Source: an uncultured Bacilli bacterium
GTDB lineage: Bacteria; Bacillota_I; Bacilli_A; RF39; UBA660
Assembly (NCBI GenBank): GCA_934096605.1
Contig: CAKOMI010000003.1
Location: 1 to 62,293, forward strand
DNA length: 62,293 nucleotides
Direction of reading: 5' to 3'
The position numbers and the translations under genes were made by a program. Every line of letters starts with the position of its first letter. Positions within the stretch are counted from its first letter, which is position 1. The notes beneath the pieces are model-generated. The model worked only from the letters and a program-made list of their open reading frames with translations. It made no database searches and had not been told where the DNA came from. Positions 3,843 to 34,108 of this stretch are shown here, one piece after another.

Positions 3843-3925
3843 AATCATGTCAAATTAGCTATAACTTATGACTTTTATTAAAAAATTTGATATAGTATAA
3901 GAGTAATATAGAAAGGGGTGTGGTT

Positions 3926-4675: not shown

Positions 4676-4688
4676 ATAGTCCTCTTTT
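4667..4688. terminator. bidirectional hairpin terminator between convergent deoD and the collagen-like gene
   Basis: GAGGACTA/TAGTCCTC stem spanning the deoD stop, followed by TTTT. Confidence 0.55.
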
Positions 4689-4689
4689 A

Positions 4690-21629: not shown

Positions 21630-22262
21630 ATGCAAAATATCTTGGAATGGTTAAAGTCTAAAAAAATATTAGTTAGTTTTATCTTAATGGCTTTTGTTAC
21701 TGTAGTTTCTCTAGGCTTATACGCAACAAGTGTTATGGCTGAAGAAACCTATACTTGTCCAAAATCTGAAGAAATAGTTCCTTCAGAAGAAGAACAAAGT
21801 GAGATCGTTGTAGACATTAAAGGTGCTGTTGCAAAACCAGGTGTATATAAAGCCAAAAAAGGTAGCATTGTAAATGACTTAATAAAAATGGCTGGTGGCT
21901 TAACTAAAGATGCAGATACTAGCAATTTAAATTTAAGCAAATCTTTAACTAATGAAATGGTTGTAACAGTCTACACTAAAGATGAAGTTAAAAATATGGC
22001 TAAGCTAGATAGTATTACTGAGAATAACGAAAGCACAAGTAATGACCAAACAACTACTGACCAAGCAAGTTCTTTAATCAATATTAACACAGCTAGTTTA
22101 AGTGAATTACAAAATATTCCTGGTGTAGGTGAGGCAAAAGCTAAACTTATTATTGATTATCGCACTAACTGTGGCAAATTTACTAAAAAAGAAGATATTA
22201 AAAATATTAAGGGTATAGGCGACAAGATGTATGAAAAAATGGCCCCATATCTTACAGTCTAA
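21630..22262 (+). CDS. comEA: ComEA competence DNA receptor (SLBB plus helix-hairpin-helix)
   Basis: N-terminal TM, VDIKGAVAKPGVYK (SLBB), INTASLSELQNIPGVGEAKAKLIIDYR..GKF..EDIKNIKGIG (HhH). Confidence 0.88.
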   Translation: MQNILEWLKSKKILVSFILMAFVTVVSLGLYATSVMAEETYTCPKSEEIVPSEEEQSEIVVDIKGAVAKPGVYKAKKGSIVNDLIKMAGGLTKDADTSNLNLSKSLTNEMVVTVYTKDEVKNMAKLDSITENNESTSNDQTTTDQASSLININTASLSELQNIPGVGEAKAKLIIDYRTNCGKFTKKEDIKNIKGIGDKMYEKMAPYLTV

Positions 22263-24291
22263 GTATGTAATAATCATTATTTTACTTTTCTTAACCATAA
22301 TATGTTATTTAAGATTATTTAGGAGTAATCATGATATTGATCCTGCTAAAGATAATCTCGTAGGGAAAGTGTTGAACTATAAAATAGATGGTGATACACT
22401 TTCTCTTACTTTAAAAAATAAAGAAAAATATATTGTTTACTACACGTTTAAAACTGAAAACGAAAAAAATTACTATGTAAATAGCTTAGGTTTTAACGAT
22501 ACTTTAGAATTATATGGTGAGTTTAACTATCCTAGTACTAATAAAATTCCTAATACTTTCAATTATCAAAAATATTTAAATAACAAAAATATTTATTATA
22601 TTTTTAATGCTAATAAAGTTTCTATTACTAAAAAGGGTAATGTTTTATTTCAAATTAAAACGAAAATTATGAATACTTTAATAAGTAAAGATAATAATGA
22701 TTATTTTCTTACGATGGTTATGGGTAATACTACTCTTTTAGATACAGATAATATTAGATTTAATGGTATTAGTCATTTATTTGCTATTTCTGGAATGCAT
22801 ATTTCTTTGTTTATTTTTTTTCTTTCTAAAATATTTGGTAGGTTAGGTAATAAGAAAAATATTATTATCTTACTTTTTTTAAGTTTTTATGCTTTTTTAA
22901 CTAGTTTTACACCTTCTGTTTTAAGAGCTAGTTTAATGTGGGTGGCATCTTTAATAAATGATAAATATAATTTGGGTTTAAATACAAGATTAAGACTATT
23001 TTATATAGTAACAATCTTACTACTTATTAATCCGTTTTTCATCTATGATATAGGCTTTCAATATTCCTTTTTAATAAGTTACTGTCTTACTTATTTAATA
23101 CCAAGAAAAAATTATTTTATAAGTCTTTTCTATACCAGCCTTGTGGCCTTTTTAGCTAGTATACCCATCACCGCTAGTAATTATTATTCTATTAATCTTC
23201 TTACTGTTATTTGGAATTTGTTTTTTGTACCTTTCGTTAGTTTTATTTTATATCCTGTCTGTTTCTTAAGTTTACTAATACCTCTTTTAAATCCTTTATT
23301 TTCTAAGTGCATTTTAATATTTTCTAATATTAATAATTTGTGTAGCACTATTACCGTCGGAGTTGTTGCTATCCCTAAAGTACCAATTATCCTTTGGTTT
23401 ATTTATTTTGTTATACTATTTATGATTTTAAAAAAGAAAAAAAGAAAATACAAACTCATCTTACCAATTGTGTTTTTGGTTATATTGTTATTTCCTATAT
23501 TAGATAACGCATGTCACGTTTACTACTTAAATGTATCCCAAGGTGACTCTAGTTTAATTGTAACACCTAATAAAAAAGCTGTCTTAATTGATACAGGAGG
23601 GTTAGTTAGTTTTAAAAAAGAAGATTGGACTGTTAAAACTAAAAAAACAAACAATGCATCGAATATTAAGACTTTTATTAATTCACTTGGCATTAATGAG
23701 TTAGAAACTTTAATAATTACACATGGAGATTACGATCATATGGGAGAAGCTGTAAATCTTGTCAATATTTTGAAAGTTAAAAAAGTAATCTTTAACTGTG
23801 GAACGTTTAATACATTAGAATCTAATTTAAGAAAAGTTTTAGAAGCAAAAAAGATTCCATACCAGTCATGTATTAAAGAGCTTAACATTGAGAACTACCA
23901 ATTAAACTTTTTAAATACAAGAGTATTTGGGGATGAAAATAATAATAGTAATGTTATTTATACAGAACTTAATGGATATAAGTTTATGTTTATGGGAGAT
24001 GCGGGAATTGAAAAAGAAAAAGATATTTTAGATAAGTATAACTTAGCAAATATTGATGTATTAAAAGTAGGACATCATGGGAGTAAGACAAGTAGTAGTA
24101 AAGAGTTTATAGATGAAATTAAACCAAAGTATTCCATTATTAGTGTTGGGAAAAATAATCGTTATGGACATCCAAATAAAGAAGTATTAAATAATTTGAG
24201 TGATTCAAAAATATATAGAACAGATCAAGATGGTAGTATTATGTTTAAGATGAAAAACAATAAATTAAAAATTGAGATATGTAGTCCATAG
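22231..24291 (+). CDS. comEC: ComEC/Rec2 DNA internalisation channel with intact C-terminal metallo-beta-lactamase domain
   Basis: Competence domain (GISHLFAISGMHISL, PSVLRASLM), MBL motifs LNVSQGDS, THGDYDHMGE, FMGDAG, KVGHHGS, RYGHP; start overlaps the comEA end. Confidence 0.9.
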   Translation: MKKWPHILQSKYVIIIILLFLTIICYLRLFRSNHDIDPAKDNLVGKVLNYKIDGDTLSLTLKNKEKYIVYYTFKTENEKNYYVNSLGFNDTLELYGEFNYPSTNKIPNTFNYQKYLNNKNIYYIFNANKVSITKKGNVLFQIKTKIMNTLISKDNNDYFLTMVMGNTTLLDTDNIRFNGISHLFAISGMHISLFIFFLSKIFGRLGNKKNIIILLFLSFYAFLTSFTPSVLRASLMWVASLINDKYNLGLNTRLRLFYIVTILLLINPFFIYDIGFQYSFLISYCLTYLIPRKNYFISLFYTSLVAFLASIPITASNYYSINLLTVIWNLFFVPFVSFILYPVCFLSLLIPLLNPLFSKCILIFSNINNLCSTITVGVVAIPKVPIILWFIYFVILFMILKKKKRKYKLILPIVFLVILLFPILDNACHVYYLNVSQGDSSLIVTPNKKAVLIDTGGLVSFKKEDWTVKTKKTNNASNIKTFINSLGINELETLIITHGDYDHMGEAVNLVNILKVKKVIFNCGTFNTLESNLRKVLEAKKIPYQSCIKELNIENYQLNFLNTRVFGDENNNSNVIYTELNGYKFMFMGDAGIEKEKDILDKYNLANIDVLKVGHHGSKTSSSKEFIDEIKPKYSIISVGKNNRYGHPNKEVLNNLSDSKIYRTDQDGSIMFKMKNNKLKIEICSP

Positions 24292-24304
24292 AAAGGAGTA
24301 AGAT

Positions 24305-25192
24305 ATGAACTATTACAACGAGATAAAAAATAAGTTAATAGATAATGAAGTTTATTCAATGGTAAAGGACTATTCGAAAGAAAGGCATAAAGTTATTACA
24401 TATTTTGAAATAGGGAGATTATTAACTGAGGCTGGAGGAAAATATGGAGATAATGTTATAGATGAATACTCTCAAAAACTAGTTGTTGAAGTTGGTAAAA
24501 AATATAATAGAAGAACATTATTTAGAATGAAACAATTATACAATATATTTAGTAATGAAAAAGTGTCCACACTGTGGACACAATTGACATGGAGTCATTT
24601 AAGATTATTATTCAGTTTAGAAACTGATTCTATGAATTATTATATTAAAGATACAATAAATAAAAATTTATCAGTTAGAGAATTAGAATTTAAGATTAAA
24701 TCTAATGAATATGAAAGATTACCTATTGAAACTAAAAACAAATTAATACTTGATGATGAAATTGAAACAACAGATTTAGTACCAAATCCCATAATAATTA
24801 GAAATAAAAATAATATTGAAATAGTTACTGAAAAAGCGTTACATAATTTAATATTAGAAGATATAGAATCATTTATGAAAGAACTCGGTAATTCATTTAG
24901 TTTTATAGGTAGTGAATATAAAATAAAAATAGGTGATAGAAATCATTATATAGATTTGTTATTATTTAATATAAAGTTTAATTGTTATGTAGTAATTGAA
25001 TTAAAAGTTACCCAATTTAAAGTTGAATATATTTCACAGGTTCAAAAGTATATGAATTACATAGATAAAAACATAAAAGAAATAAGTAATAATAATACAA
25101 CGGGAATATTAATATGCAAAAGAGAAAATAAATTTGTAATAGAATACTGTTCAGATGAGAGAATTGCTGTTAGAGAATATGAATTAGTATGA
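24305..25192 (+). CDS. YhcG/DUF1016 PD-(D/E)XK nuclease (cassette 1)
   Basis: LTWSHLRLL, VRELEFKIKSNEYERL, FMKELGNSFSFIGSEYKIKIGDRNHYIDLLLFN...VVIELK (D..ExK), GILICK..VIEY; RBS GAAAGGAG directly after the comEC stop. Confidence 0.85.
   Translation: MNYYNEIKNKLIDNEVYSMVKDYSKERHKVITYFEIGRLLTEAGGKYGDNVIDEYSQKLVVEVGKKYNRRTLFRMKQLYNIFSNEKVSTLWTQLTWSHLRLLFSLETDSMNYYIKDTINKNLSVRELEFKIKSNEYERLPIETKNKLILDDEIETTDLVPNPIIIRNKNNIEIVTEKALHNLILEDIESFMKELGNSFSFIGSEYKIKIGDRNHYIDLLLFNIKFNCYVVIELKVTQFKVEYISQVQKYMNYIDKNIKEISNNNTTGILICKRENKFVIEYCSDERIAVREYELV
24563..24581. repeat. perfect 9+1+9 palindrome inside DUF1016 copy 1
   Basis: GTGTCCACA c TGTGGACAC. Confidence 0.95.
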
Positions 25193-25198
25193 TATAAT
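25190..25198 (+). promoter_or_regulatory. extended -10 box TGATATAAT overlapping the DUF1016 stop (cassette 1 junction)
   Basis: TGA stop is the TGn of TGnTATAAT; the same box recurs at all cassette junctions; cargo ATG about 22 nt downstream. Confidence 0.55.
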
Positions 25199-25219
25199 AT
25201 AGATACTGGAAGGTGTTAT

Positions 25220-25789
25220 ATGAAAATTGAAGAGTTAAAAAAATTAAAAGAAAAAGTAGAACAATTAATAAAAAAAAGAAATGAAGTATTAGAGATTCAA
25301 GAAGAAATAAAAAAATTAGAAGAAACAGATGAAATTAAAAAATATTTAAATTTATTAAATTTATTCAAAGAAAAAACAACAGGAAGAAATACTGGAATTG
25401 AAAAATTTACTAACAAAAAAATTATTGATATTGCAGTAAGTAATACAAAAATAACTCCTGATGAGGAAATGTATGTATATATAGGAACGTATAAGTATAA
25501 TAATGAAATTGACATTGTTCATGGCTCTTGTGATATTTTAGTAAGTAGGAATGACCATAAAGCAAATTATGTTCTATATCAAAACTTAGAAGCTAAATAT
25601 TATGAAACTGTTCAAATTCCATATACAAAAGCTGACGAATTTGAGTCTACTCATAAAATAATATTTCCACAAAACGTTGCAAATAAACAAAGATATTTTT
25701 ATGATTTACAATCTGAATATTTTGAAACAATGGTTTTTGAATCTCCTGAAAAAGCAAAAGAGAAAGTTAATAGATTAATAAGAAAATAG
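25220..25789 (+). CDS. cargo 1: hypothetical protein with N-terminal coiled coil
   Basis: 189 aa, RBS GGAAGGTG; no recognisable motif. Confidence 0.6.
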   Translation: MKIEELKKLKEKVEQLIKKRNEVLEIQEEIKKLEETDEIKKYLNLLNLFKEKTTGRNTGIEKFTNKKIIDIAVSNTKITPDEEMYVYIGTYKYNNEIDIVHGSCDILVSRNDHKANYVLYQNLEAKYYETVQIPYTKADEFESTHKIIFPQNVANKQRYFYDLQSEYFETMVFESPEKAKEKVNRLIRK

Positions 25790-25801
25790 TATTAGTAAAT
25801 T

Positions 25802-25826
25802 GAGGCTTAGAAATAAGTCTCTTTTA
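25802..25826 (+). terminator. rho-independent terminator after cargo 1
   Basis: GAGGCTTA gaaa TAAGTCTC followed by TTTT. Confidence 0.65.
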
Positions 25827-25873
25827 TATAACATTATATTTGATTAAATTCGTATGCATAAACATATGTCACC

Positions 25874-26444
25874 ACATGGAGATTACGATCATATGGGAGA
25901 AGCTGTAAATCTTGTCAATATTTTGAAAGTTAAAAAAGTAATCTTTAACTGTGGAACGTTTAATACATTAGAATCTAATTTAAGAAAAGTTTTAGAAGCA
26001 AAAAAGATTCCATACCAGTCATGTATTAAAGAGCTTAACATTGAGAACTACCAATTAAACTTTTTAAATACAAGAGTATTTGGAGATGAAAATAATAATA
26101 GTAATGTTATTTATACAGATTTTAATGGATATAATTTTATATTTATGGAATATGTGGGAATTGAACAAAAAAAAGATATTTTAGATAAGTATAACTTAAC
26201 AAATATTGATGTGTTAAAAGTAGGACATCATGGGAATAAGACAAGTAGTAGTAAAGAATTTATAGATGAAACAGAACCTAAGTATGCCATTATTATTGTA
26301 GGAAAGAATAATAGATATGGCCATCTGAAAAAAGAAGTACCTAATAATTTAGATAACTCTAAAATATACAGGACAGATCAAGATGGAAGTACTATGTTTA
26401 AGATTAAAAATATCAAATTACAAATTGGGACTTGTAGTCTGTAG
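25874..26444 (+). pseudogene. displaced comEC 3' remnant 1 (full-length tail, degenerate)
   Basis: First ~265 nt match comEC 23721 onward with one mismatch seen; the rest diverges and loses MBL residues (FMGDAG to FMEYVG, GHPN to GHLK); lacks the comEC 5' 1.5 kb. Confidence 0.85.
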
Positions 26445-26456
26445 GAAGGAGCAAAT

Positions 26457-27344
26457 ATGAATTATTATAATGAAATAAAAAATAAATTAGTAGATAATGA
26501 AATATATTCAAAAGTGAAAGACTATTCGAAGGAAAGACATAAAGTTGTTACATATTTTGAAATTGGCAAGTTGCTAAATGATGCAGGTGGAAAATATGGA
26601 GATAATATTATAGATGAATATTCTAAAAAATTAGTTGTTGAAGTTGGTAAAAAATATAACAGAAGAACATTATTTAGAATGAAACAATTATACAATATAT
26701 TTAGTAATGAAAAAGTGTCCACACTGTGGACACAATTGACATGGAGTCATTTAAGATTATTATTCAGTTTAGAAACTGATTCTATGAATTATTATATTAA
26801 AGATACAATAAATAAAAATTTATCAGTTAGAGAATTAGAATTTAAGATTAAATCTAATGAATATGAAAGATTACCTATTGAAACTAAAAACAAATTAATA
26901 CTTGATGATGAAATTGAAACAACAGATTTAGTACCAAATCCCATAATAATTAGAAATAAAAATAATATTGAAATAGTTACTGAAAAAGCGTTACATAATT
27001 TAATATTAGAAGATATAGAATCATTTATGAAAGAACTCGGTAATTCATTTAGTTTTATAGGTAGTGAATATAAAATAAAAATAGGTGATAGAAATCATTA
27101 TATAGATTTGTTATTATTTAATATAAAGTTTAATTGTTATGTAGTAATTGAATTAAAAGTTACCCAATTTAAAGTTGAATATATTTCACAGGTTCAAAAG
27201 TATATGAATTACATAGATAAAAACATAAAAGAAATAAGTAATAATAATACAACGGGAATATTAATATGCAAAAGAGAAAATAAATTTGTAATAGAATACT
27301 GTTCAGATGAAAGAATCGCTATTAGAGAATATGAATTGGTGTGA
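26457..27344 (+). CDS. YhcG/DUF1016 PD-(D/E)XK nuclease (cassette 2)
   Basis: Protein identical to copy 1 from about residue 60 to residue 291 of 295 (differs at residue 292, V/I); first 60 codons diverged. Confidence 0.85.
   Translation: MNYYNEIKNKLVDNEIYSKVKDYSKERHKVVTYFEIGKLLNDAGGKYGDNIIDEYSKKLVVEVGKKYNRRTLFRMKQLYNIFSNEKVSTLWTQLTWSHLRLLFSLETDSMNYYIKDTINKNLSVRELEFKIKSNEYERLPIETKNKLILDDEIETTDLVPNPIIIRNKNNIEIVTEKALHNLILEDIESFMKELGNSFSFIGSEYKIKIGDRNHYIDLLLFNIKFNCYVVIELKVTQFKVEYISQVQKYMNYIDKNIKEISNNNTTGILICKRENKFVIEYCSDERIAIREYELV
26715..26733. repeat. perfect 9+1+9 palindrome inside DUF1016 copy 2
   Basis: GTGTCCACA c TGTGGACAC. Confidence 0.95.
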
Positions 27345-27350
27345 TATAAT
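27342..27350 (+). promoter_or_regulatory. extended -10 box TGATATAAT at cassette 2 junction
   Basis: Overlaps the DUF1016 TGA stop. Confidence 0.55.
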
Positions 27351-27372
27351 ATGTATATAGGAAGTGATTACT

Positions 27373-28086
27373 ATGTCAAAAATACTTGAAACAAATTTGT
27401 GTAGAATTAATTATTCTGATAGTTTGGAAGAATTATCTAATGCAACAGTTAAACTATTACAAAATAAGATTGTTGAATATAAGAAATTATTTAATATTGA
27501 ATTTGATGAACAGATTATTGTGAATTATTTTGACGATTTAGAAGAGTTTAGAGAATTTATATATAAGATTAGAGGAGAAAGAGTGTCATTACCTAAATAT
27601 GCAAAAGGTACTTATGATGATGGCATGGTTAATGCATGCATTGAACCAGATACACAATTAAAAAGACTATATACTGCGAGTCACGAGTTGTTTCATATTT
27701 TATATATGAAGTATATATTAAAAAATGATTATTCGAATAGAATAGTTTGGTATGATGAAGGTATGGCTCAATTTATTTCTGGGGAAAAAGATAAATATGC
27801 TGATGAAGAAAAATTTAAAAGATTTTACTTAAAAGTAAAAGAGAATACTAAAATAATACCAAATTTAAATGATTTGAAACATGGTAATTCATTTTGCAAT
27901 GATGAATATAATGGATATGATTTAAGCTATTTATCTGTTAGATATTTAAATGAAATATTAACTTCAGAAGATTTTAAAAAACTTATGTCTGATTTTTCAA
28001 CTATAAAAGAGTATGGAAACAATTTAATATATAGAATGTTTGATTATTATGATTTGAAATTTGAATGTAACAAAAGAATAAAATAA
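27373..28086 (+). CDS. cargo 2: putative gluzincin-type metallopeptidase (HExxH..E)
   Basis: SHELFHILYM then WYDEGMAQF 20 residues later (HExxH-X20-E); start at ATG after AGGAAGTGA. Confidence 0.55.
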   Translation: MSKILETNLCRINYSDSLEELSNATVKLLQNKIVEYKKLFNIEFDEQIIVNYFDDLEEFREFIYKIRGERVSLPKYAKGTYDDGMVNACIEPDTQLKRLYTASHELFHILYMKYILKNDYSNRIVWYDEGMAQFISGEKDKYADEEKFKRFYLKVKENTKIIPNLNDLKHGNSFCNDEYNGYDLSYLSVRYLNEILTSEDFKKLMSDFSTIKEYGNNLIYRMFDYYDLKFECNKRIK

Positions 28087-28187
28087 AATTAAAACTGCAT
28101 TATCAAAAAATGTGGTTTTTTCTTTGAAAATAGCCATATTTCATTCGAATTACTAATTGACAATTAGCACATGGAGATTACGATCAT

Positions 28188-29225
28188 ATGGGAGAAGCTG
28201 TAAATCTTGTCAATATTTTGAAAGTTAAACAAGTAATCTTTAACTGTGTGGTGTTTAATGATTTAGAATCTAGTTTAATAAAAGTTTTAGAAGCAAAAAA
28301 GATTCCATACCAGTCATGTATTAATGAACTTGATATTGATAATTACCAATTAAACTTTTTAAATACAAAAGTATTTGGTGATGAAAATAATAATAGTATT
28401 GTTATTTATACAAAACTTGATGGTTATAAGTTTGTGTTTATGGGAGATGCGGTAATTGAACAAGAAAAAGATATTTTAGATAAGTATAACTTAGCAAATA
28501 AAGAAGTATTAAATAATTTGAGTGATTCAAAAATATACAGGACAGATCAAGATGGTAGTATTATGTTAAAGTTTTATGAGTTGAACGAAAAAGTGCAGAC
28601 ACTGTCTGCACAATTATCTTGGTCGCATTATTGTGAATTACTATCTTTTGAGAATACTGATAAAATTAATTATTACATAGAATTAGTTAAAAATAATAAT
28701 TTATCAGTTAGGCAATTAAGAAAAAGAATAAAATCTAATGAATATGAAAGGCTTCCGGAATCTACTAAAAATAAATCAGTAGAACAAAAAGAATCCGATA
28801 TAGTTGATTTTATCAAGAATCCAATTTTGATTAAAAATAGCAATAAGTATGATATATTTTCAGAGAAAGTATTACAAAAATTAATTTTAGAAGATATTGA
28901 AAATTTTCTAGAAGAATTAGGAAATGGATTTACATTTATAAAAAGTGAATATCCAATTAAATTAGGTAATAGATACAACTATATTGATTTATTACTTTAT
29001 AATATTAAATATAGGTGTTATGTAGTTGTAGAATTAAAGATAGCAGAACTTAAGAAGGAGCATACTGGACAAATTATGACTTATATGAATTATATAGATA
29101 AGAATATAAAAACTATTGAAGAAAATGATACAGTAGGAATTATCATTTGTAAACAGGATAATTCCTACGTTATAAAATATTGTTCAGATGATAGAATTAT
29201 AGCAAGAGAATATGAACTTGTGTGA
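28188..29225 (+). CDS. chimeric ORF: comEC 3' remnant 2 (49-codon internal deletion) fused in frame to a 5'-truncated DUF1016 nuclease (cassette 3)
   Basis: MGEAVNLVNILKV..DILDKYNLAN/KEVLNNLSDSKIYRTDQDGSIML/KFYELNEKVQTLSAQLSWSHY...VVVELK..; a divergent DUF1016 allele. Confidence 0.8.
   Translation: MGEAVNLVNILKVKQVIFNCVVFNDLESSLIKVLEAKKIPYQSCINELDIDNYQLNFLNTKVFGDENNNSIVIYTKLDGYKFVFMGDAVIEQEKDILDKYNLANKEVLNNLSDSKIYRTDQDGSIMLKFYELNEKVQTLSAQLSWSHYCELLSFENTDKINYYIELVKNNNLSVRQLRKRIKSNEYERLPESTKNKSVEQKESDIVDFIKNPILIKNSNKYDIFSEKVLQKLILEDIENFLEELGNGFTFIKSEYPIKLGNRYNYIDLLLYNIKYRCYVVVELKIAELKKEHTGQIMTYMNYIDKNIKTIEENDTVGIIICKQDNSYVIKYCSDDRIIAREYELV
28593..28611. repeat. perfect 9+1+9 palindrome inside DUF1016 copy 3 (different arms)
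   Basis: GTGCAGACA c TGTCTGCAC at the same codon position as in copies 1 and 2. Confidence 0.95.
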
Positions 29226-29231
29226 TATAAT
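29223..29231 (+). promoter_or_regulatory. extended -10 box TGATATAAT at cassette 3 junction
   Basis: Overlaps the TGA stop of the chimeric DUF1016 ORF. Confidence 0.55.
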
Positions 29232-29250
29232 AAATATAGGATGTGATAAT

Positions 29251-30033
29251 ATGGCTTTACCGAAAATCATGTTTAAAGAAATGACTTTGCAAGAAAACAT
29301 AGATGTTATAAAGTGGGCATATTTTGAAAACAATGGAGCATTAAGCGTTCATGATTTTACAATTAAATACTTTCCACAACTAGCTAATTTGGATACAAAC
29401 TTATCTAGAGATGAAATTTATAAAGTTATAGAAGAAGTAGTTACTAATGATTATAATAAACATAAACATAAACATAGAATTAAAAGTGAAACCGAAAGAT
29501 ATAACAAGCTATGGAGACAATATAATGATAGTTATTTTAAGGCGTTATCATCATATTTGAAGATAGAATGGCCAAATAATTTAAAAGAAATAAGTGCAAC
29601 TGTTGGATTAATTCCGGTTTTTCCAAGATATTTAGACAATTTTTCTTTTTCAATTGGTACAGGCGTTGATGATTCTAAATTATTAGAAGTTTGTGCTCAT
29701 GAAACCCTACATTTTTTATGGTTTGAAAAATGGAATCAAATTCATCCAGAAACGCCAAGACGTGAATATGACTCACCATATTTAGTATGGCAATATAGTG
29801 AGATGGTAACAGATCCTATTTTGAATAATAAACCATTTTCTACAATGTTCGAATTTGATGAACGAGGATATGATAGCTTTTATGAACTTGAAGATGATTC
29901 TGGTAAAGTTATGGATAAATTGAGAAACATCTATAGTAAAGATATATCAATTGAAGAAAAAATGAATGATGGATTCAATTATATTAATCGAGTTTTTAAT
30001 AAAGATATAGATGAAATGATTGCGAAAAAGTAA
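29251..30033 (+). CDS. cargo 3: hypothetical HExxH protein
   Basis: CAHETLHFLWFEKW motif; unrelated to cargo 2 outside HExxH; start set at ATG 29251 after TAGGA. Confidence 0.5.
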   Translation: MALPKIMFKEMTLQENIDVIKWAYFENNGALSVHDFTIKYFPQLANLDTNLSRDEIYKVIEEVVTNDYNKHKHKHRIKSETERYNKLWRQYNDSYFKALSSYLKIEWPNNLKEISATVGLIPVFPRYLDNFSFSIGTGVDDSKLLEVCAHETLHFLWFEKWNQIHPETPRREYDSPYLVWQYSEMVTDPILNNKPFSTMFEFDERGYDSFYELEDDSGKVMDKLRNIYSKDISIEEKMNDGFNYINRVFNKDIDEMIAKK

Positions 30034-30107
30034 TCTTTTTTCTTTATAAATAAAATCATTGTATTCGACTTACTAATTGACAATCACCACATGGTGATTA
30101 TGATCAT

Positions 30108-30881
30108 ATGGGAAAAGCTGTAAATCTTGTCAATATTTTGAAAGTTAAAAAAGTAATCTTTAACTGTGGGGTGTTTAATGGTTTAATTGAAAGAGCTAAA
30201 GTTGCTTGTAAAGGAAGTAATAATAACATAGATAATCATTTTGTGTTACAATGCAAAATGATAAAATTAACAAAAGGTGCAACAAGAAAAGTTATAGATT
30301 ATAAATTATCTAGATATGCATGTTATTTAATGGTAATGAATGGTAATCCTAGGAAAAACATTATAGCTTTAGGACAAACATATTTTGCCATTCAAACAAG
30401 GAACCAAGAACTCTCTGAAAAAGAATATAATAATCTTACTGAAGATGAGAAAAGATTATATCGAAGAAATCAAACAAGAAAAGAAATTTATAATTTAAAC
30501 AAAATAGCAGTTGAAAGTGGAGTAAAAGATTTAGCTAGATTTCATAATGCAGGATATACGGGTCTTTATAATGGTGAAACAGCAGACGATATTTTTAAGA
30601 TGAAGAAACTAAGATATAGAGAAGATATATTAGATAACATGGGTAGCGAAGAACTAGCTGATAATATATTTAGAATTGCTCAAACCGATGCTAAATTAAA
30701 AAGAGATAAAGTGGATAATGAATATACTGCAAATAGTGTTCACTACGAAATTGGTAAAATAGTAAGAAAAGCAATTAAAGAAGCAGGTGGCACTATGCCA
30801 GAAGTTCTACCAACACCAAAGAAAAGTTTAAAAGAGTTAGAGAAAGAGAAAAAAGATTCAAATAAGTTACTTCAAGATTAA
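30108..30881 (+). CDS. dinD: chimeric ORF: comEC 3' remnant 3 (first ~95 nt) fused in frame to N-terminally truncated DinD (DNA-damage-inducible protein D family)
   Basis: MGKAVNLVNILKVKKVIFNCGVFNG then LSRYACYLMVMNGNP, GQTYFAIQTRNQEL, EDEKRLY, HNAGYTGLYNG, ILDNMGSEELADNIFRIAQTDAKLKRD, GGTMPEVLPTP, as I recall E. coli DinD. Confidence 0.8.
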   Translation: MGKAVNLVNILKVKKVIFNCGVFNGLIERAKVACKGSNNNIDNHFVLQCKMIKLTKGATRKVIDYKLSRYACYLMVMNGNPRKNIIALGQTYFAIQTRNQELSEKEYNNLTEDEKRLYRRNQTRKEIYNLNKIAVESGVKDLARFHNAGYTGLYNGETADDIFKMKKLRYREDILDNMGSEELADNIFRIAQTDAKLKRDKVDNEYTANSVHYEIGKIVRKAIKEAGGTMPEVLPTPKKSLKELEKEKKDSNKLLQD

Positions 30882-30896
30882 AAGGTATTATTAATG

Positions 30897-30905
30897 TGAT
30901 ATAAT
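30897..30905 (+). promoter_or_regulatory. extended -10 box TGATATAAT at cassette 4 junction (non-coding here)
   Basis: Same GTGATATAAT box 16 nt after the DinD stop, so it is conserved independently of any stop codon. Confidence 0.55.
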
Positions 30906-30924
30906 AATTACAGGTTGTGGTTAT

Positions 30925-31530
30925 ATGTCAAAGGAATCAAAATTATATTTATTTATAGATAGAAGAGACTATATAAAGAAATTAACTGATGATGATGTAA
31001 TAAATGTTATTGGAACAAAAGGCTCTGGTAAAACAACAAGTACACTAAAATATATTGAAGATGAAGATTGTATAGTGATTAATTGTGATAGATTATATGA
31101 AATGCCAACTGATAAAGTTGTTGATGATAAATATTTAACTGAAATAAAAGAGTTATTAAAAAATAAATATGGAAAAATATGTGAAGGTGAGGAATTTATA
31201 AATTGCTATAATGACATATTAGATTTTATCAAAAGTAAAAATAAAAAAGCTTTAATTGAAGGTAATGTAATCTATGATATTAAACCAATAACATTATTAA
31301 AAGGGACTATAATAGTTAAAAGAACTGGAATAATAAAATGCTTTATACGAGCAGTAAAGAGAGATTACCCAATTAAATATTTCTTAAATCAAGAAATTGA
31401 AAAGCATGGCAAAATATTAGGAAGAATCAATAGACTTAAAAATATAATAAAAAGAAGAAAAAATATTTTTAAAATATATCATGAAATTGAAAATATAATT
31501 GATGACTTAGAAACATATCAAAATGATTAA
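30925..31530 (+). CDS. cargo 4: P-loop NTPase/kinase-like protein
   Basis: Walker A GTKGSGKTT near the N-terminus; size and layout resemble small nucleotide/zeta-like kinases. Confidence 0.55.
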   Translation: MSKESKLYLFIDRRDYIKKLTDDDVINVIGTKGSGKTTSTLKYIEDEDCIVINCDRLYEMPTDKVVDDKYLTEIKELLKNKYGKICEGEEFINCYNDILDFIKSKNKKALIEGNVIYDIKPITLLKGTIIVKRTGIIKCFIRAVKRDYPIKYFLNQEIEKHGKILGRINRLKNIIKRRKNIFKIYHEIENIIDDLETYQND

Positions 31531-31575
31531 CTGTAATTATTATTTAATTGCTGTTTTTTCTTTGCGAAAATAATC

Positions 31576-31662
31576 GTTACGGGCACCATAAGGCATGTGT
31601 TTTAGACACATTAAAAAATAATAAATTAAAAATAGAGACTTGTAGTCAGTAGGAAGGAGTAA
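31576..31662 (+). pseudogene. displaced comEC 3' remnant 4 (last ~90 nt with internal deletion)
   Basis: gaaaataatcgttacgggcaccataagg matches comEC ..aaaaataatcgttatggacatccaaataaag; ..aataaattaaaaatagagacttgtagtcagtag matches the comEC terminus. Confidence 0.7.
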
Positions 31663-31664
31663 AT

Positions 31665-32548
31665 ATGAATTATTATAATGAAATAAAAAATAAATTAATA
31701 GATAATGAAATAAATAGAAAAGTAAAAAAATATTCAATTAATAGAAGTGATTTAAATACATACTATAATGTTGGAAAAATATTAAGTGAAGCCGGCAAGC
31801 ATTATGGAGAGGGTATTATTAAAGAATACTCTATTAAATTAACCAATGAATTAGGAAAGGGGTATACTCAATCAAGATTAAGATATTTTAGAAGATTTTA
31901 TAATGTTTTTTCAAAATGTCCGACATTGTCGGACAAATTATCTTATTCCCATTATTGTGAATTAATATGGATGGAAGATTTTAATAAAATAAACTATTAT
32001 ATAGACTTATCTGTTGATCATAATTTATCTGTTAGACAATTGAGAGACAGAATAAAATCAAATGAATACGAAAGGCTTGATGAAGTAGCTAAAAATAAGT
32101 TAAGAAACAAAGAAAAAAATAATGTAACAGATCTTGTTAAAAATCCAATATTAATTAAAAATAGTTATAATTATGAAAACATATCAGAAAAACTCTTGCA
32201 GAAATTAATACTTGAAGATATTGTATCTTTTATGAAAGAGTTAGGAACTGGATTTAGTTTTATAGATAATGAATTTAAAATTAAAGTAGGAGATAGTTAT
32301 AATTATATCGATTTACTTTTGTATAATATTAAGTTTAAATGCTATGTTGTTATAGAGTTGAAGTGATTAAGTTGAATTCAAATCATACTGGTCAAATTCA
32401 AAATTATATGAATTATATTGATAAAAATGTAAAAGGCATTGATGATAATAAAACTGTTGGCATTATCATTTGCAAACAAAATAATCAGTATGTAATAGAT
32501 TATTGTTCTGATGATAGAATTATTGCAAGAGAATATGAACTGGTGTAA
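31665..32548 (+). pseudogene. YhcG/DUF1016 nuclease with a frameshift right after the ELK catalytic motif (cassette 5)
   Basis: ORFs 31665-32366 and 32339-32548 together align to full-length DUF1016; frame changes at VVIELK/VIKLNSNHTGQIQNYMNYIDKN. Confidence 0.75.
31917..31935. repeat. perfect 9+1+9 palindrome inside DUF1016 copy 5 (third arm variant)
   Basis: TGTCCGACA t TGTCGGACA at the same codon position. Confidence 0.95.
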
Positions 32549-32554
32549 TATGAT
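32546..32554 (+). promoter_or_regulatory. variant junction box TAATATGAT at cassette 5
   Basis: Positional equivalent of TGATATAAT, overlapping a TAA stop. Confidence 0.4.
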
Positions 32555-32575
32555 ATTGTTAAGGGAGTGATTGTA

Positions 32576-33106
32576 ATGGAGGAAAAAAGATATATTTATG
32601 GAAAATCAAAAAATAAACTCAAAGAAAACACTATTAATTTACCAGACAAATATTTAATGAATTATGTCAATAATCCTAAGTATTTATTTCATGGCAGTCC
32701 AAAAAAATTAAAAATTATTGAGCCTAAAGAGTCAACCAGTTTTAATTATTTAATAAATAATAGGGGTGAGGCTGTATATATGACTCCTTTATTTGTTTTG
32801 GCTAGTGCCTATGCTTTTAGAGATTCTATTATAAAACTAAGTGAAAAAGTTCCTTATAACATTACAATAGGAGTAACAGAATACGCCAAAGAAATATACA
32901 TTATAATGGATAATGTTATTGTTGATGATGAGTTAGAAGGCTATATTTATGTTTTTGAGTGGGATGATAATTATAAACAAAGAAAAGACATGATTCAGTA
33001 TAAAGCTCATAAAGAAATGCCACCAATTGATATTATAAAGATTAAATTTAAAGATTTTAAAAAGTTTTATACTATTAATGAGGCTAATGAAAATATTAGA
33101 AAATAA
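32576..33106 (+). CDS. cargo 5: hypothetical protein with a possible H-Y-E ADP-ribosyltransferase-like pattern
   Basis: LFHGSP, then GEAVYMTP 29 residues later, then ELEGYIYVFE; start at ATG after GGGAGTGA. Confidence 0.5.
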   Translation: MEEKRYIYGKSKNKLKENTINLPDKYLMNYVNNPKYLFHGSPKKLKIIEPKESTSFNYLINNRGEAVYMTPLFVLASAYAFRDSIIKLSEKVPYNITIGVTEYAKEIYIIMDNVIVDDELEGYIYVFEWDDNYKQRKDMIQYKAHKEMPPIDIIKIKFKDFKKFYTINEANENIRK

Positions 33107-33133
33107 TGTGTTTTAGAAAATTATAAGACTTTT

Positions 33134-34108
33134 ATGAATAATCATGGTACAATACCTATGGTGGTTACAGTGAAAGTTATATTAATAAGTACTGATTCAG
33201 TACATTTACTTGAAGAAAAATTAAATGATTTAATTCCTACAAATTCAGTGGTAGTTCGTTATAATATGAAAGAAACGAGTCTAAATGATGTTTTAGAAGA
33301 GGCTTCATATGTATCTCTTTTTGATGATATGAAATATTTAGTTGTTAAAAATAGTGATTTTTTTGGTAAGGCAAAATTAACAGAAAAAGAAGAAAAAAGT
33401 TTTCTTTCTTATTTAGATAATCCTTATCCTTGTACAACTATTATTTTTACAACCTATGATACTATTGATAAACGCAAAAGTATTACTAAAAAAATAATTG
33501 ATAACTATAAACTAATTGAATTAAAAAGTCCTAAAAATTATGATTTAATTAGAGAAACTAAGTCAAGAACAAGTAAATATAACATAAGTGATAAATCGAT
33601 TAAATATATTGTTGATGCTTGTTTATCTAATTATGACTTAGTATTAGAAGAACTAGATAAGCTTGCGTTAATGTATAAAAAAGATGATACTATAAAATAT
33701 GAAGATATAAAAAATATTGTTGCTAGTAATGCAAGCGATAATGTTTTTAAATTTGTTGATGCTGTTATAGCCAAGGATTTACGAGTTAGTATGACTTTAT
33801 ATGAAGAGTTTTTGAGTTTGAAATTAGATCCCTTACAATTAATTAATATGTTAGTAAGAGAGTATCGTTTATTATATTATTATAAGTTATATGAAAGAAA
33901 AAGATATAGTATGAGTGATATTATGAGTAATTTACGTTTAGCTGATTGGCAAGTTCAAAAATTAATGAAAGAAGCAAGTGCTTATCATACTGATGATTTG
34001 AAAGACTACTTAATTAATTTATCAAAACTAGACTATAAAATAAAGTCTGGTAAACTTGATAAAACATCCGCTATGTATGCTTTCTTACTCCAAAATTTAG
34101 AATATTAA
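33134..34108 (+). CDS. holA: DNA polymerase III delta subunit
   Basis: Length, clamp-loader delta pattern (..LSLFDDMKYLVVKN.., ..NVFKFVDAV..) and the comEC-holA synteny known from Bacillus; true start uncertain (ATG 33158 or GTG 33170 possible). Confidence 0.7.
   Translation: MNNHGTIPMVVTVKVILISTDSVHLLEEKLNDLIPTNSVVVRYNMKETSLNDVLEEASYVSLFDDMKYLVVKNSDFFGKAKLTEKEEKSFLSYLDNPYPCTTIIFTTYDTIDKRKSITKKIIDNYKLIELKSPKNYDLIRETKSRTSKYNISDKSIKYIVDACLSNYDLVLEELDKLALMYKKDDTIKYEDIKNIVASNASDNVFKFVDAVIAKDLRVSMTLYEEFLSLKLDPLQLINMLVREYRLLYYYKLYERKRYSMSDIMSNLRLADWQVQKLMKEASAYHTDDLKDYLINLSKLDYKIKSGKLDKTSAMYAFLLQNLEY

Follow-up and report, generated by a model that had tools for sequence, protein, structure and literature searches.

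An intragenic palindrome in DUF1016/YhcG genes changes in step with the ParB-like domain that the same genes encode

Introduction

The locus analyzed here belongs to a 62,293-nucleotide stretch of DNA from an uncultured Bacilli bacterium (contig CAKOMI010000003.1; hereafter the window), in which copies of a DUF1016/YhcG gene lie downstream of comEC. An initial annotation pointed to a perfect palindrome at the same codon position of each copy, with arms that differ between alleles and compensate one another. This raises the question of why coding sequences should hold such symmetry and what, if anything, reads it. The question reaches beyond this locus, since DUF1016/YhcG is a widespread family in which a near-perfect palindrome lies within the family's own coding sequence, and we found no published description of such a family-wide intragenic element in the literature.

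Results

The genes and palindromes of the locus are as follows.

22231..24291, + strand: comEC, intact, context gene
24305..25192, + strand: DUF1016/YhcG copy 1, 295 aa, with a predicted ParB-like N-terminal DNA-binding domain and PD-(D/E)XK nuclease
24563..24581, no strand: palindrome 1, GTGTCCACA c TGTGGACAC, encoding V87-Q93, proposed cognate site of copy 1
26457..27344, + strand: DUF1016 copy 2, 295 aa, nearly identical to copy 1 from about codon 60
26715..26733, no strand: palindrome 2, same sequence as palindrome 1
28188..29225, + strand: DUF1016 copy 3, an in-frame fusion of a 3' comEC fragment with a DUF1016 gene
28593..28611, no strand: palindrome 3, GTGCAGACA c TGTCTGCAC, encoding VQTLSAQ
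31665..32549, + strand: DUF1016 copy 5, a pseudogene with its DNA-binding domain intact
31917..31935, no strand: palindrome 5, TGTCCGACA t TGTCGGACA, encoding CPTLSDK

Copy 1 starts 14 nt past the comEC stop codon, matches Pfam DUF1016_N (6.6e-23) and YhcG_C (4.2e-35), and is assigned to PDC-S02 by PADLOC. Copy 3 has no HTH-coding N-terminus, its homology beginning near family residue 77-84, and copy 5 carries a stop at 32364-32366, directly after the IELK motif, with a frameshift next. The DUF1016 copies of the window are four, the slot of "copy 4" being held by a DinD-like gene.

All four claimed 9+1+9 palindromes were verified as perfect, one in each DUF1016 copy. Palindromes 1 and 2 both read GTGTCCACAcTGTGGACAC, palindrome 3 reads GTGCAGACAcTGTCTGCAC and palindrome 5 reads TGTCCGACAtTGTCGGACA. 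Each lies inside a gene with DUF1016_N and YhcG_C domains, seven codons 5' of the L(S/T)(W/Y)SH motif. In the 62 kb window, whose G+C content is 28%, they are the sole G+C-rich perfect palindromes with arms of at least 9 bp, and no further copies of them occur elsewhere in it. The encoded heptapeptide had been placed in an otherwise conserved region; it turned out to be a variable, low-confidence loop between two helices.

The palindrome is also found far outside this locus. It occupies the same codon position in DUF1016/YhcG genes of approximately 80 Bacilli species, and plasmid and phage copies carry it across seven phyla, with plasmid examples in Lachnospiraceae, Rhodococcus, Hymenobacter, Citrobacter, Vibrio, Simkania and Holosporales. 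IMG/VR contributed 80 loci, with arms of up to 15 bp, and metagenomes another 80. In E. coli K-12, yhcG holds three tandem palindromes, with arms of up to 15 bp, and in E. coli the site occurs once per genome, unique to the yhcG gene. Two blocks within the palindrome are conserved across phyla, CA-N-TG inside and CAATTG outside, and about 10% of family members have no clear palindrome. The initial observation was correct, and understated, as the symmetry recurs family-wide from these gut Bacilli to E. coli K-12.

Chance is excluded as the origin of the palindromes, since resampling synonymous codons for the same peptides yields complete 9/9 pairing with a probability of 8e-5 under the codon usage of the window, or 5e-4 under uniform usage, while 34 of 60 distinct homologous 21-mers are perfect (a further 24 pair at 8/9). 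A perfect arm of at least 8 bp is present at the anchor position in 136 of 182 genes and elsewhere in approximately 1 kb of the same gene in 34 of 182. Among 108 distinct sequences, 85.3% of cells are paired, compared with 56.1% in shuffles (none of 500 reaches the observed value) and 25-44% in slid registers; cells changed on both sides number 337, where 100 are expected. A hold-out clade gives the same picture codon by codon: Val GTC occurs solely with Gly GGA (38 cases) and GTG almost solely with Ala (GCA 28, GCC 2), and the crosswise combinations, GTC with Ala and GTG with Gly, are absent from it. Together, codon resampling and covariation statistics support the earlier proposal of nucleotide-level selection for dyad symmetry.

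The symmetry could in principle serve RNA, single-stranded DNA or duplex DNA, and the pairing pattern distinguishes among these. For each core pair, 0-2 sequences show a one-sided change from G-C to G-U, whereas double changes number 9-60. Mismatches comprise 27 A:C, 5 G:T and 27 others; G:U or U:G cells amount to 5 across the eight core pairs of the 108 sequences. The hold-out set shows 633 Watson-Crick, 2 G:T and 4 A:C pairs. Counting positions (k) from the palindrome center, pairs beside the single central base are mostly kept (96% at k=2, 80% at k=1). Because pairing is strictly Watson-Crick, with G:T almost absent, and symmetry extends up to one central base, the palindrome fits a double-stranded DNA dyad and not an RNA or attC-like hairpin.

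In this regard, an mRNA hairpin that controls translation, RNA stability or processing, or that binds the protein as RNA, is highly improbable. The covariation does resemble that of an RNA stem, and a terminator scan describes a stable 8-bp stem with a 3-nt loop; however, A:C mismatches are at least as frequent as the scarce G:U, and complementarity usually persists beside a 1-nt center, where the loop of an RNA hairpin could not pair. The site is also remote from the RBS, 85-125 codons into the gene, and Rfam gave no match. The same scan raises the idea of an intrinsic terminator for antisense or bidirectional transcription, with minus-strand calls at 3 of the 4 window sites (stem then TTTTTC), copy 5 being called on the plus strand alone, and at least five A within 8 nt upstream in 90% of Bacilli-clade genes. 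This A-run, however, consists of the NEK/DEK codons of one AT-rich clade and appears in only 23% of plasmid and viral members, none of which has a sense-strand T-tail. A terminator would also leave unexplained the residue-base co-variation described below, and we regard it as very unlikely to be the basis of the element. Termination could nevertheless be a secondary use of the palindrome in the AT-rich Bacilli clade.

The arrangement of the locus calls attention to recombination. The 3' part of comEC, from its HGDYDH codons (~23722), recurs before each downstream cassette, and arrays of DUF1016, cargo and comEC fragment adjoin comEC in the window and in about 50 of 80 related loci. An attC-like, IS200-like or comEC-flanked crossover site, possibly acting on imported single-stranded DNA, would suit such arrays, as well as the many database fragments that begin or end near the palindrome and the yhcG genes of some E. 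coli strains, truncated at its 3' edge. The cassette boundaries, however, fall at the HGDYDH codons and not at the palindrome, and recombination breakpoints (pairwise max-chi2) concentrate 100-200 nt downstream of it, in the domain linker. No recombinase or Y1 transposase is associated with the element, which is perfect where attC sites are imperfect, with extrahelical bases, and which also occurs in single-copy genes with no comEC nearby. These findings leave little room for a mobility site, and the suggested single-stranded hairpin and its tie to the ssDNA importer gene comEC found no support, the palindrome being family-wide and independent of comEC.

We therefore turn to the encoded protein. 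The N-terminal domain of DUF1016 resembles the DNA-binding domain of ParB/Spo0J, although the homology is remote. The hhalign comparison of copy 1 with Spo0J (E 8.3e-5, probability 61%) spans the HTH and the next helices, the top 12 Foldseek matches in the PDB are all ParB, Spo0J or Noc (E-values 0.15-0.6), hmmsearch matches Spo0J 6sdk, and a sub-threshold HTH_ParB Pfam match is present in 19 of 40 members. Confidence in the AF2 model is limited to the N-terminal domain. Three elements of copy 1 are relevant here.

24494..24535, + strand: codons G64-Q77 (GKKYNRRTLFRMKQ), aligned to the ParB HTH recognition helix
24602..24604, + strand: codon R100, two residues past WSH (WSH+2), predicted equivalent of ParB R204
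24674..24676, + strand: codon V124, the X of LS-X-RELE, within the stretch that aligns with the Spo0J LNVRQLE motif

Residues in these elements co-vary with individual palindrome bases. Where WSH+2 is Arg, k=4 is C:G (49 of 49 sequences and 9 of 9 clusters at 60% identity; MI 1.30 of 1.61 bits, z 8.4). Lys or Arg in LS-X-RE goes with C:G at k=3 (60/60), and Arg70 with G at k=7 (103/103 sequences, 13/13 clusters). At k=8, Phe, Tyr, Trp or Met accompany T (87/87), Glu accompanies C (6/6) and Gln accompanies A (7/8). In copy 1, R70 co-varies with k=7, F73 with k=8-9 and V124 with k=3 (Val with A), while R74, T71 and N68 are the top-ranked yet weaker columns for k=5-6 (z ~3). The other alleles fit as well: C149 of copy 3 (28632-28634) and C98 of copy 5 (31956-31958) agree with the pairing of Cys with G at k=4, and V174 (28707-28709) and V123 (32031-32033), respectively, with that of Val with A at k=3. 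The co-varying residues map to segments aligned with ParB helices alpha4 and alpha6, and the third, in the LSVRE motif, to what we take to be alpha8. In line with this, alpha4 and alpha6 contact DNA in the crystal structure of Caulobacter ParB-parS (PMC7383237).

In these statistics kinship was handled only by clusters at 60% identity and a hold-out clade. Three rules could be re-tested in that clade, and two of them held: Arg with G at k=7 in 35/35, once more ahead of every other column of the protein (MI 1.01 of 1.07), and LS-X-RE Arg with C at k=3 in 76/79. The third held with a register shift of one base, WSH+2 Arg going with C in 5/6 and non-Arg with A in 73/74, at k=5 and not k=4; this one-base register shift is that of the PWGH clade. 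Since, in addition, Val and Thr at WSH+2 go with G in one clade and with A in another, the co-variation looks like a recognition code but not a single universal one.

Every base change in the palindrome also alters an encoded loop residue, so protein-protein co-evolution could still account for hydrophobic classes such as Leu, found with A where codon 5 encodes Val or Leu. The Arg rule at WSH+2, however, is kept with palindrome codon 5 encoding Trp (17), Arg (14), Gly (11) or Cys (5), which indicates that the variable shared with this Arg is the base and not the loop residue.

A structure-specific element, that is, a cruciform or single-stranded hairpin read by shape and whatever its sequence provided that the arms pair, for example by a Holliday-junction-resolvase-like nuclease domain, would explain why every arm position co-varies with Watson-Crick complementarity, why arms are G+C-rich in a 28% G+C genome and why truncations or deletions of E. 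coli alleles fall at the palindromes. It also agrees with the NucS_C match of the C-terminal domain, predicted to be closest to archaeal Holliday-junction resolvases (PMC1189080). Even so, a pure shape model does not predict the Arg-G, Glu-C, Gln-A and aromatic-T preferences by which individual bases follow residues in HTH-type helices, nor the blocks conserved across phyla. Arms of 9 bp are, moreover, short for extrusion in vivo, and we judge this explanation unlikely. Both models are compatible, as a protein that binds a specific sequence might also cut it once extruded. A functionless by-product, in which template switching, known to perfect quasi-palindromes, keeps an ancestral one perfect, is scarcely credible for an element that lasts across phyla and G+C contents, forces changes in the peptide and follows residues far from it, and that in Rhodococcus uses AT-rich codons that are rare there.

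Discussion

Taken together, our results suggest that each protein probably recognizes the palindrome of its own gene as double-stranded DNA, because the bases of the palindrome change in step with the predicted DNA-reading residues of the ParB-like domain. The earlier reading of one cognate dimer-binding site per allele is supported by this base-by-base co-variation.

We propose a model in which DUF1016/YhcG proteins would consist of an N-terminal helix-turn-helix domain of the ParB/Spo0J type and a C-terminal PD-(D/E)XK nuclease. Each of the two identical half-sites would be read by one subunit, and in that case the arms would change together and symmetry would mostly extend up to the single central base pair. 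Specificity has probably diversified: bases 5-9 from the center follow residues of the recognition helix, and bases 2-4 follow the R204-equivalent residue and one in the LS-X-RE helix. The palindrome is encoded where the DNA-binding domain has a loop between two helices, which tolerates structural change, and would thus travel with the gene.

As to its use, autogenous control is the one we consider most likely. A dimer (three of them in E. coli K-12) bound ahead of the sequence for the nuclease half could act as an operator or roadblock needing no promoter, and the palindrome probably gives portable autoregulation. Such control would suit a toxic gene usually inserted promoterless into foreign operons, such as those of comEC, type I R-M and integrases; DUF1016 genes typically adjoin or overlap a same-strand upstream gene. 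The nuclease might alternatively cleave, or be sequestered at, its own locus. An active nuclease bound within its own gene poses an unexplained self-cleavage problem for the binding-site reading.

Several known systems resemble this arrangement in part. Integron attC and IS200/IS605 hairpins share dyad symmetry and variable sequence, but they form in single-stranded DNA, deviate from perfect symmetry (extrahelical bases, subterminal positions) and depend on IntI or Y1; none of these features is seen for the DUF1016 palindrome. Homing endonucleases, with one PD-(D/E)XK example, are likewise nucleases with a long allele-specific recognition sequence tied to their own gene. Gene insertion splits and destroys their sites, whereas the DUF1016 site is intact in the gene and absent from loci lacking it, and so cannot drive classical homing.

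Restriction-modification C proteins bind a palindrome as HTH dimers, exert autogenous control over a potentially lethal nuclease, as proposed here, and thereby aid safe establishment after horizontal transfer. C-boxes, however, belong to upstream promoters and are bound by a small protein distinct from the nuclease, whereas the DUF1016 binder and nuclease would be one polypeptide and the site is intragenic. Intragenic operators and roadblocks (lac O2 in lacZ, gal OI in galE, and PurR, CodY and CcpA sites within ORFs) also place a dimeric repressor site in coding sequence, where codon choice preserves the operator. They regulate other genes and are not conserved in the regulator's own gene family, while the DUF1016 site lies in the own ORF of nearly all members, with regulation here inferred.

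A close parallel is ParB/Spo0J-parS, together with Noc-NBS and KorB-OB, in which an HTH domain with extra DNA-contact helices sits as a symmetric dimer on a palindrome; in ParB, specificity is set by a few residues (PMC7383237). Unlike ParB, DUF1016 has no N-terminal CTPase/spreading domain and no ParA partner, and carries a PD-(D/E)XK nuclease instead. Its site, in turn, is odd-length, with one central base and 9-15-bp arms, varies between close relatives where parS is nearly invariant, and holds a fixed codon position within the coding region of the DNA-binding domain. A cognate palindrome can sit within its protein's own ORF in the ParB system too: Listeria parB/spo0J contains its own parS at codon 218, and B. 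subtilis spo0J harbors a parS as well, as reported by Lin & Grossman (1998).

A palindrome at a fixed codon position of DUF1016/YhcG genes

Each DUF1016/YhcG gene of the window (copies 1, 2, 3 and 5) carries a perfect 9+1+9 palindrome seven codons before its L(S/T)(W/Y)SH motif, as the initial annotation had claimed, and no other G+C-rich perfect palindrome of that size exists in the 62 kb. The genes lie between comEC and holA, arranged as follows:

21630-24291: comEA-comEC, left border of the cassette region
24305-25192: DUF1016 copy 1, then a cargo ORF and a comEC 3' fragment
26457-27344: DUF1016 copy 2, then HExxH peptidase-like cargo and a comEC fragment fused to copy 3
28188-29225: DUF1016 copy 3, 5'-truncated and fused to a comEC fragment, then further cargo
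30108-30881: DinD-like gene fused to a comEC fragment, then P-loop cargo
31665-32549: DUF1016 copy 5, a pseudogene, then the last cargo
33134-34108: holA, right border of the cassette region

When homologous genes were anchored by HMM and the 19-mer was taken at the identical codon position, 80 species-level genome loci plus the window yielded 58 distinct 19-mers, 34 of them perfect and 22 with 8/9 pairs. The arms of the Bacilli 19-mers are highly varied (GTGTCGCCA, TGGTCGCCA, GGTGCCACA, GTGAACGCA, GTGCACCCA, TTGAACCCA and others). The suspicion that dyad symmetry is selected at the nucleotide level was borne out by a codon-shuffle control in which the peptide was kept and synonymous codons were resampled: a perfect site arose with P = 8e-5 under window codon usage and 5e-4 under uniform usage, and since resampling rarely gives a perfect site, codon choice itself must be constrained. 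Covariation statistics over 108 distinct sequences agree, with 85.3% of cells paired against 56.1% in column shuffles (a level reached in 0/500), 337 double-sided changes observed against 100 expected, and pairing of only 25-44% in registers shifted by 1-3 columns. A perfect arm of at least 8 bp is found at the anchor in 136/182 genes, compared with 34/182 anywhere in the remaining ~1 kb of the gene.

In the one-genome-per-species set, the closest pairs with different arms are ~80% identical in the N-terminal domain, which leaves this set too sparse for a shape-versus-sequence test. The DUF1016 gene of comparison locus L007 is 97% identical to those of L013, L015 and L018 in its C-terminal half and 82% in its N-terminal domain, and their palindromes differ in concert on both arms (GTGTCGCCA/TGGCGACAC vs TGGTCGCCA/TGGCGACCA). 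This group displays domain-level mosaicism, with breakpoints clustered in the inter-domain linker.

Pairing statistics pointing to a duplex DNA element

Numbering arm bases from the palindrome centre (k), pairing is kept up to the single central nucleotide (96% at k=2 and 80% at k=1). Complementarity at these positions argues for a duplex rather than a hairpin, since a hairpin loop could not pair there. One-sided changes from G-C to G-U are seen in 0-2 sequences for each core pair, compared with 9-60 double changes; mismatches in near-perfect sites comprise 27 A:C, 5 G:T and 27 others; and in a hold-out set, the PWGH clade, the cells divide into 633 Watson-Crick, 4 A:C, 2 G:T and 9 others. This near-absence of G:U speaks against an RNA helix, which would be G:U-rich. 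An mRNA hairpin is therefore disfavoured by the pair statistics, and an Rfam search at E-values up to 10 gave no relevant family match to the palindrome. As far as base pairing can indicate it, the symmetry points to a double-stranded DNA type of element. Its conserved blocks are CA-N-TG inside and often CAATTG outside, kept even in high-G+C Rhodococcus, where the corresponding codons are rare. As a practical caution, strong co-variation in a coding region can arise from a protein-binding dyad instead of RNA structure.

An antisense intrinsic terminator is a reading restricted to one clade. With a G+C-rich stem and a U-run, the minus strand does resemble a terminator at three window sites out of four and, within the Bacilli clade, in 90% of members, owing to the N/D-E-K codons that precede the palindrome there; the same look is present in only 23% of other family members, and on the sense strand in none.

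Co-variation between protein residues and palindrome bases

Mutual information (MI) between each arm base and every protein column was calculated over 164 non-redundant gene-site pairs, with palindrome-encoded columns discounted. The top columns are sharp outliers located in the segments aligned with three DNA-contact helices of ParB, and the residue-base pairings are classical side-chain/base preferences.

Table. Protein positions co-varying with palindrome bases (arm base; position; pairings; MI)
k=3; X of LS-X-RE; Lys/Arg-C 60/60, Val/Ile-A, Thr/Tyr/Gly-G; 1.37 of 1.67 bits, z 7.1
k=4; residue two after WSH; Arg-C 49/49 (9/9 clusters at 60% identity), Leu-A 36/40, Cys, Ser, Val-G; 1.30 of 1.61 bits, z 8.4
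k=7; second Arg of KKYNRR; Arg-G 103/103 (13/13 clusters); 0.94 of 1.33 bits, z 4.4
k=8; Phe73 position; Phe/Tyr/Trp/Met-T 87/87, Glu-C 6/6, Gln-A 7/8, Arg/Lys-G or T; 0.87 of 1.25 bits, z 4.6

In the hold-out clade, the same residue was again the best column of the whole protein for k=7 (MI 1.01 of 1.07), with Arg-G in 35/35 and Ala/Ser/Thr-C in 45/46 cases, and at LS-X-RE an Arg is accompanied by C at k=3 in 76/79. The residue two after WGH gives Arg-C in 5/6 versus non-Arg-A in 73/74, but at k=5, a one-base register shift. Each palindrome base also changes a loop residue, and the shared variable was therefore checked. Arg at WSH+2 is found with palindrome codon 5 encoding Trp (17), Arg (14), Gly (11) or Cys (5), and Lys/Arg at LS-X-RE with codon 3 encoding Gln, Pro, Arg or His. 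As the codon-5 residues share only the G at the second codon position, the co-variation partner is the base and not the amino acid.

The window genes obey these rules: in copies 1 and 2 the residues R100, V124, R70 and F73 (copy 1 numbering) accompany C at k=4, A at k=3, G at k=7 and T at k=8, respectively, and in copies 3 and 5 a Cys accompanies G at k=4 and a Val accompanies A at k=3. Two readings of the palindrome had been offered in the initial annotation. The first, that each allele carries its own cognate dimer site, gains from the co-variation of site bases with DNA-contact residues in both the training and hold-out sets, which makes each site the predicted target of its own gene product. 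The second, a purely structure-specific cruciform or hairpin, leaves the residue-base code unexplained; such a structure may exist as an additional state.

A predicted ParB-like DNA-binding domain joined to a nuclease

Copy 1 scores 81.8 and 121.4 bits against the Pfam families DUF1016_N (PF17761) and YhcG_C (PF06250), whose cut-offs are 32.8 and 32.5; copies 3 and 5 also exceed both gathering scores, and the PADLOC candidate PDC-S02 was matched at 3.7e-59. The catalytic D...E-x-K is kept in copies 1-3 (IDLLL...VIELK; D217, E232, K234), and copy 5 ends immediately after ELK. D217 and K234 are invariant in family alignments A1 and A4, and E232 in A1 only.

No solved structure of any DUF1016/YhcG member was found. 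An AF2 model built from 40 sequences is confident only for residues 1-148 (pLDDT 85-95) and puts residues 86-90, which the palindrome encodes, into a loop of low confidence that connects helices 69-82 and 96-102; a model from 6 sequences was poor (pLDDT 53). The top 12 Foldseek matches in the PDB were all ParB, Spo0J or Noc DNA-binding domains, with E-values of only 0.15-0.6, the best being Spo0J-parS (4umk; probability 0.99, rmsd 3.1 A over 101 columns). A family profile search matches B. subtilis Spo0J 153-194, and Pfam HTH_ParB gives a sub-threshold match in 19/40 members (19 bits against a cut-off of 22.6). Alignment by hhalign with five Spo0J/ParB proteins (E 8.3e-5, probability 61%) covers only Spo0J 140-217. 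In it, GKKYNRRTLFRMKQ corresponds to the GKSR..IAN..RLL recognition helix, the loop encoded by the palindrome to the helix that follows, LTWSHLRLLF to LSMAHGRTLL and LSVRELE to LNVRQLE. In the crystal structure of Caulobacter ParB-parS, the helices in contact with DNA are alpha4, alpha6 and alpha8, and two residues of the ParB GHAR motif, G201 and R204, touch parS (PMC7383237); R100 of copy 1 aligns to R204.

The window DUF1016 genes have no Pfam match to ParBc (the N-terminal ParB/Srx CTP-binding domain with its GERRxR box), and they have no parA as a neighbour. For these reasons, and because the hhalign match is limited to Spo0J 140-217, DUF1016 would act like a ParB DNA-binding domain but is not itself a ParB.

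Distribution across the family

Symmetry at this codon position recurs in plasmid, viral, metagenome and E. coli homologues. Plasmid genes from Butyrivibrio, Rhodococcus, Hymenobacter, Citrobacter (IncA/C), Vibrio, Simkania and a Holosporales symbiont have a palindrome centred on the same base, the first of the conserved Leu codon in ..IVxTLSxQ-LSWSH (e.g. TTGCGTCCGCAcTGCGGACGCAA and CAATTGTCGTGACgctGTCACGACAATTG), and eighty IMG/VR loci likewise carry one, with arms of up to 15 bp (e.g. GAATTTGTGCAGACAaTGTCTGCACAAATTC). The hold-out IVQQxVGQLPWGH clade comprises 87 loci (80 metagenome, 7 viral); 62 of its 80 distinct 33-mers are fully paired over the 8 positions k=2-9, and another 14 pair at 7/8. 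The metagenome scan for this set used alignment A6, and as the search pattern includes part of the palindrome-encoded peptide, the set is skewed towards a single clade in protein sequence but not in DNA sequence. Conservation across phyla is more than neutral palindrome correction can account for. A degenerate or displaced site is found in about one tenth of family members, e.g. Rickettsia and Nostoc.

The initial annotation had also drawn attention to the neighbouring ssDNA importer gene, comEC. This context is incidental, because the palindrome is family-wide and occurs with no comEC nearby in about 30 of 80 related genome loci.

In E. coli K-12, yhcG (nt 300-410; positions 13100-13240 of comparison locus L171) contains three tandem 39-nt units, each palindromic and sharing the core CAGAC, the third being a perfect 15+3+15; yhcG of O157:H7 contains a single unit, a perfect 13+1+13. 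In 3,540 of 5,426 complete E. coli genomes the K-12 site is present as one copy, always inside yhcG, and the number of units differs among strains (L171-L174). In strains PE15 and 18KM2445, yhcG breaks off exactly where the third palindrome ends on its 3' side; unrelated DNA follows, together with a 101-aa ORF annotated as 'transposase', for which no Pfam match was found. Strain 18KM2445 has also lost the DNA between unit 1's left arm and unit 2's right arm, so that these two are joined. These breaks and the variation in unit number are compatible with occasional self-cleavage as well as with ordinary palindrome or tandem-repeat instability.

The cassette region and recombination

The host genome has a G+C content of 28%, and its nearest relatives are uncultured gut 'Bacilli/Tenericutes' MAGs. 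From comEC to holA (24292-33133), each cassette consists of a comEC 3' fragment, a DUF1016 or DinD-like gene and variable cargo, and all comEC fragments begin at one point, the HGDYDH codons (CACATGGAGATTACGATCAT). The architecture is seen again in about 50 of 80 related species (L004, L007, L009, L012, L037-L039, L045, L046, L050 and others). A conserved motif, ATTCGAaTTACTAATTGACAAT, lies 5' of two comEC fragments (28130-28184 and 30050-30104); it places TTGACA 16 nt from the TACGAT/TATGAT within the HGDYDH codons, a promoter-like spacing that would transcribe across the comEC fragment into the next DUF1016 or DinD gene. In addition, an extended -10 promoter (TGTGATATAAT; 25171-25198, 27323-27350, about 29222-29240 and 30878-30905) is embedded in the final codons (..EYELV-stop) of each DUF1016/DinD gene, ~25 nt before the cargo start, so that each cargo appears to have its own promoter. 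The array looks as if small modules, each carrying a promoter, had been added one after another behind the 3' end of comEC, with no integrase.

The DinD-family gene (30108-30881; NCBIfam PRK11525, 2e-79; PADLOC PDC-S13) occupies a DUF1016 slot as an in-frame fusion to a short comEC fragment, and no palindrome comparable to the DUF1016 site was seen in it. DinD-like and DUF1016 genes alternate at one position in related loci, and both families are known inside type I R-M loci. An 8+2+8 palindrome (AATCACCA ca TGGTGATT, 30082-30099) sits exactly at one junction between a cassette and a comEC fragment, overlapping (P/T)HGD codons; its similarity to half-sites of other DUF1016 alleles (GTGTCACCA) may be coincidental. 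The longest perfect inverted repeat of the window (4656-4695; 19-bp arms and a 2-nt spacer, GCATAGTAAAAGAGGACTA aa TAGTCCTCTTTTACTATGC) spans the ends of the convergent ORFs 3920-4675 (+) and 4690-5502 (-) and is presumably a bidirectional terminator.

As for the DUF1016 palindrome, a role as a recombination or attC-like site is disfavoured: the cassette junctions are the comEC HGDYDH codons and not the palindrome, max-chi2 pairwise breakpoints among 88 Bacilli genes cluster in the inter-domain linker, away from it, and no recombinase is present at the cassette region. Database ORF fragments 'starting' near the site were considered as a sign of recombination and discarded, as many simply begin at the Met of the RMKQFY motif.

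Proposed function and relation to known systems

Together, our comparisons establish at the sequence level a conserved duplex-type dyad within the ORF, a predicted ParB-like HTH encoded around it and the co-evolution of both. We propose that a dimer of the DUF1016/YhcG protein would bind the palindrome, plausibly dimerising through its resolvase-like PD-(D/E)XK domain, whose nearest kin Feder & Bujnicki found in archaeal Holliday-junction resolvases (PMC1189080). The most probable use of such binding would be autogenous control, because DUF1016 genes are usually wedged promoterless behind another gene: here 14 nt after comEC, on three plasmids overlapping a methyltransferase, hsdS or integrase gene, and on two more 11-14 nt behind the upstream gene. 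An intragenic operator upstream of the nuclease-coding half would be the only cis-element certain to accompany the gene wherever it goes, which would suit a toxic gene hopping promoterless into foreign operons, and with this element in the loop-coding segment, target site or regulator and reader would be inherited as one unit.

The site may also be cut, or may sequester the nuclease. It seems unlikely that the protein is a site-specific nuclease whose sole genomic target is the long palindrome in its own gene, the DNA site, in place of a protein or RNA, serving as an antidote or parking place or being deliberately self-cut. In the antidote case, the nuclease would be set free or switched on when the locus is lost or when invading DNA titrates the protein; in the self-cut case, the break would trigger abortive infection or, among cassette alleles, gene conversion.

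With 6,687 clusters at 50% identity, YhcG/DUF1016 ranks as a very large family. It has a member in E. coli K-12, is frequent on plasmids, phages and ICEs, and is enriched in type I R-M and defence loci. The literature regards it as an uncharacterised PD-(D/E)XK nuclease; it is enriched beside phase-variable R-M genes (PMC9881135) and is listed by PADLOC as defence candidate PDC-S02. In a full-text literature search, we found no paper tying it to a palindrome, hairpin, inverted repeat or ParB-like fold. A family previously lacking a known ligand or function gains a specific, testable predicted ligand, the palindrome in its own ORF; its N-terminal domain is assigned a predicted fold, and candidate residues for specificity are named. 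Whatever the function, thousands of matched pairs of DNA-binding domain and palindrome would form a natural library that could yield a readable, re-programmable code for a ParB-type HTH fused to a nuclease, and since every gene supplies a protein-site pair, this recognition code could be obtained without binding experiments.

The analogies to mobile elements offered in the initial annotation did not withstand comparison. An integron attC is an imperfect hairpin with extrahelical bases at cassette 3' ends, with IntI nearby, whereas the DUF1016 palindromes are perfect and inside the ORF, the cassette junctions are elsewhere and the window region holds no integrase. In IS200/IS605 elements, subterminal hairpins flank the gene for the Y1 transposase (TnpA), whereas each DUF1016 gene has a single, central site and no Y1 transposase was present among the cassette ORFs scanned. 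A homing endonuclease gene was considered as well and rejected: such an enzyme recognises a site in the empty allele that the gene interrupts, unlike the DUF1016 site, which is intact within the gene and in E. coli is found only inside yhcG, once per genome.

A precedent for a cognate palindrome inside the ORF of its own binder is parS in parB/spo0J, which we located at codon 218/284 in Listeria; a literature search gave no source to cite for the position of parS inside spo0J. As a class of mechanism, the binding of a palindrome by an HTH dimer, with possible autoregulation, is already known. What would be new is a site at a fixed codon position inside the reader's own gene, in a huge nuclease family with fast-diversifying, matched specificities.
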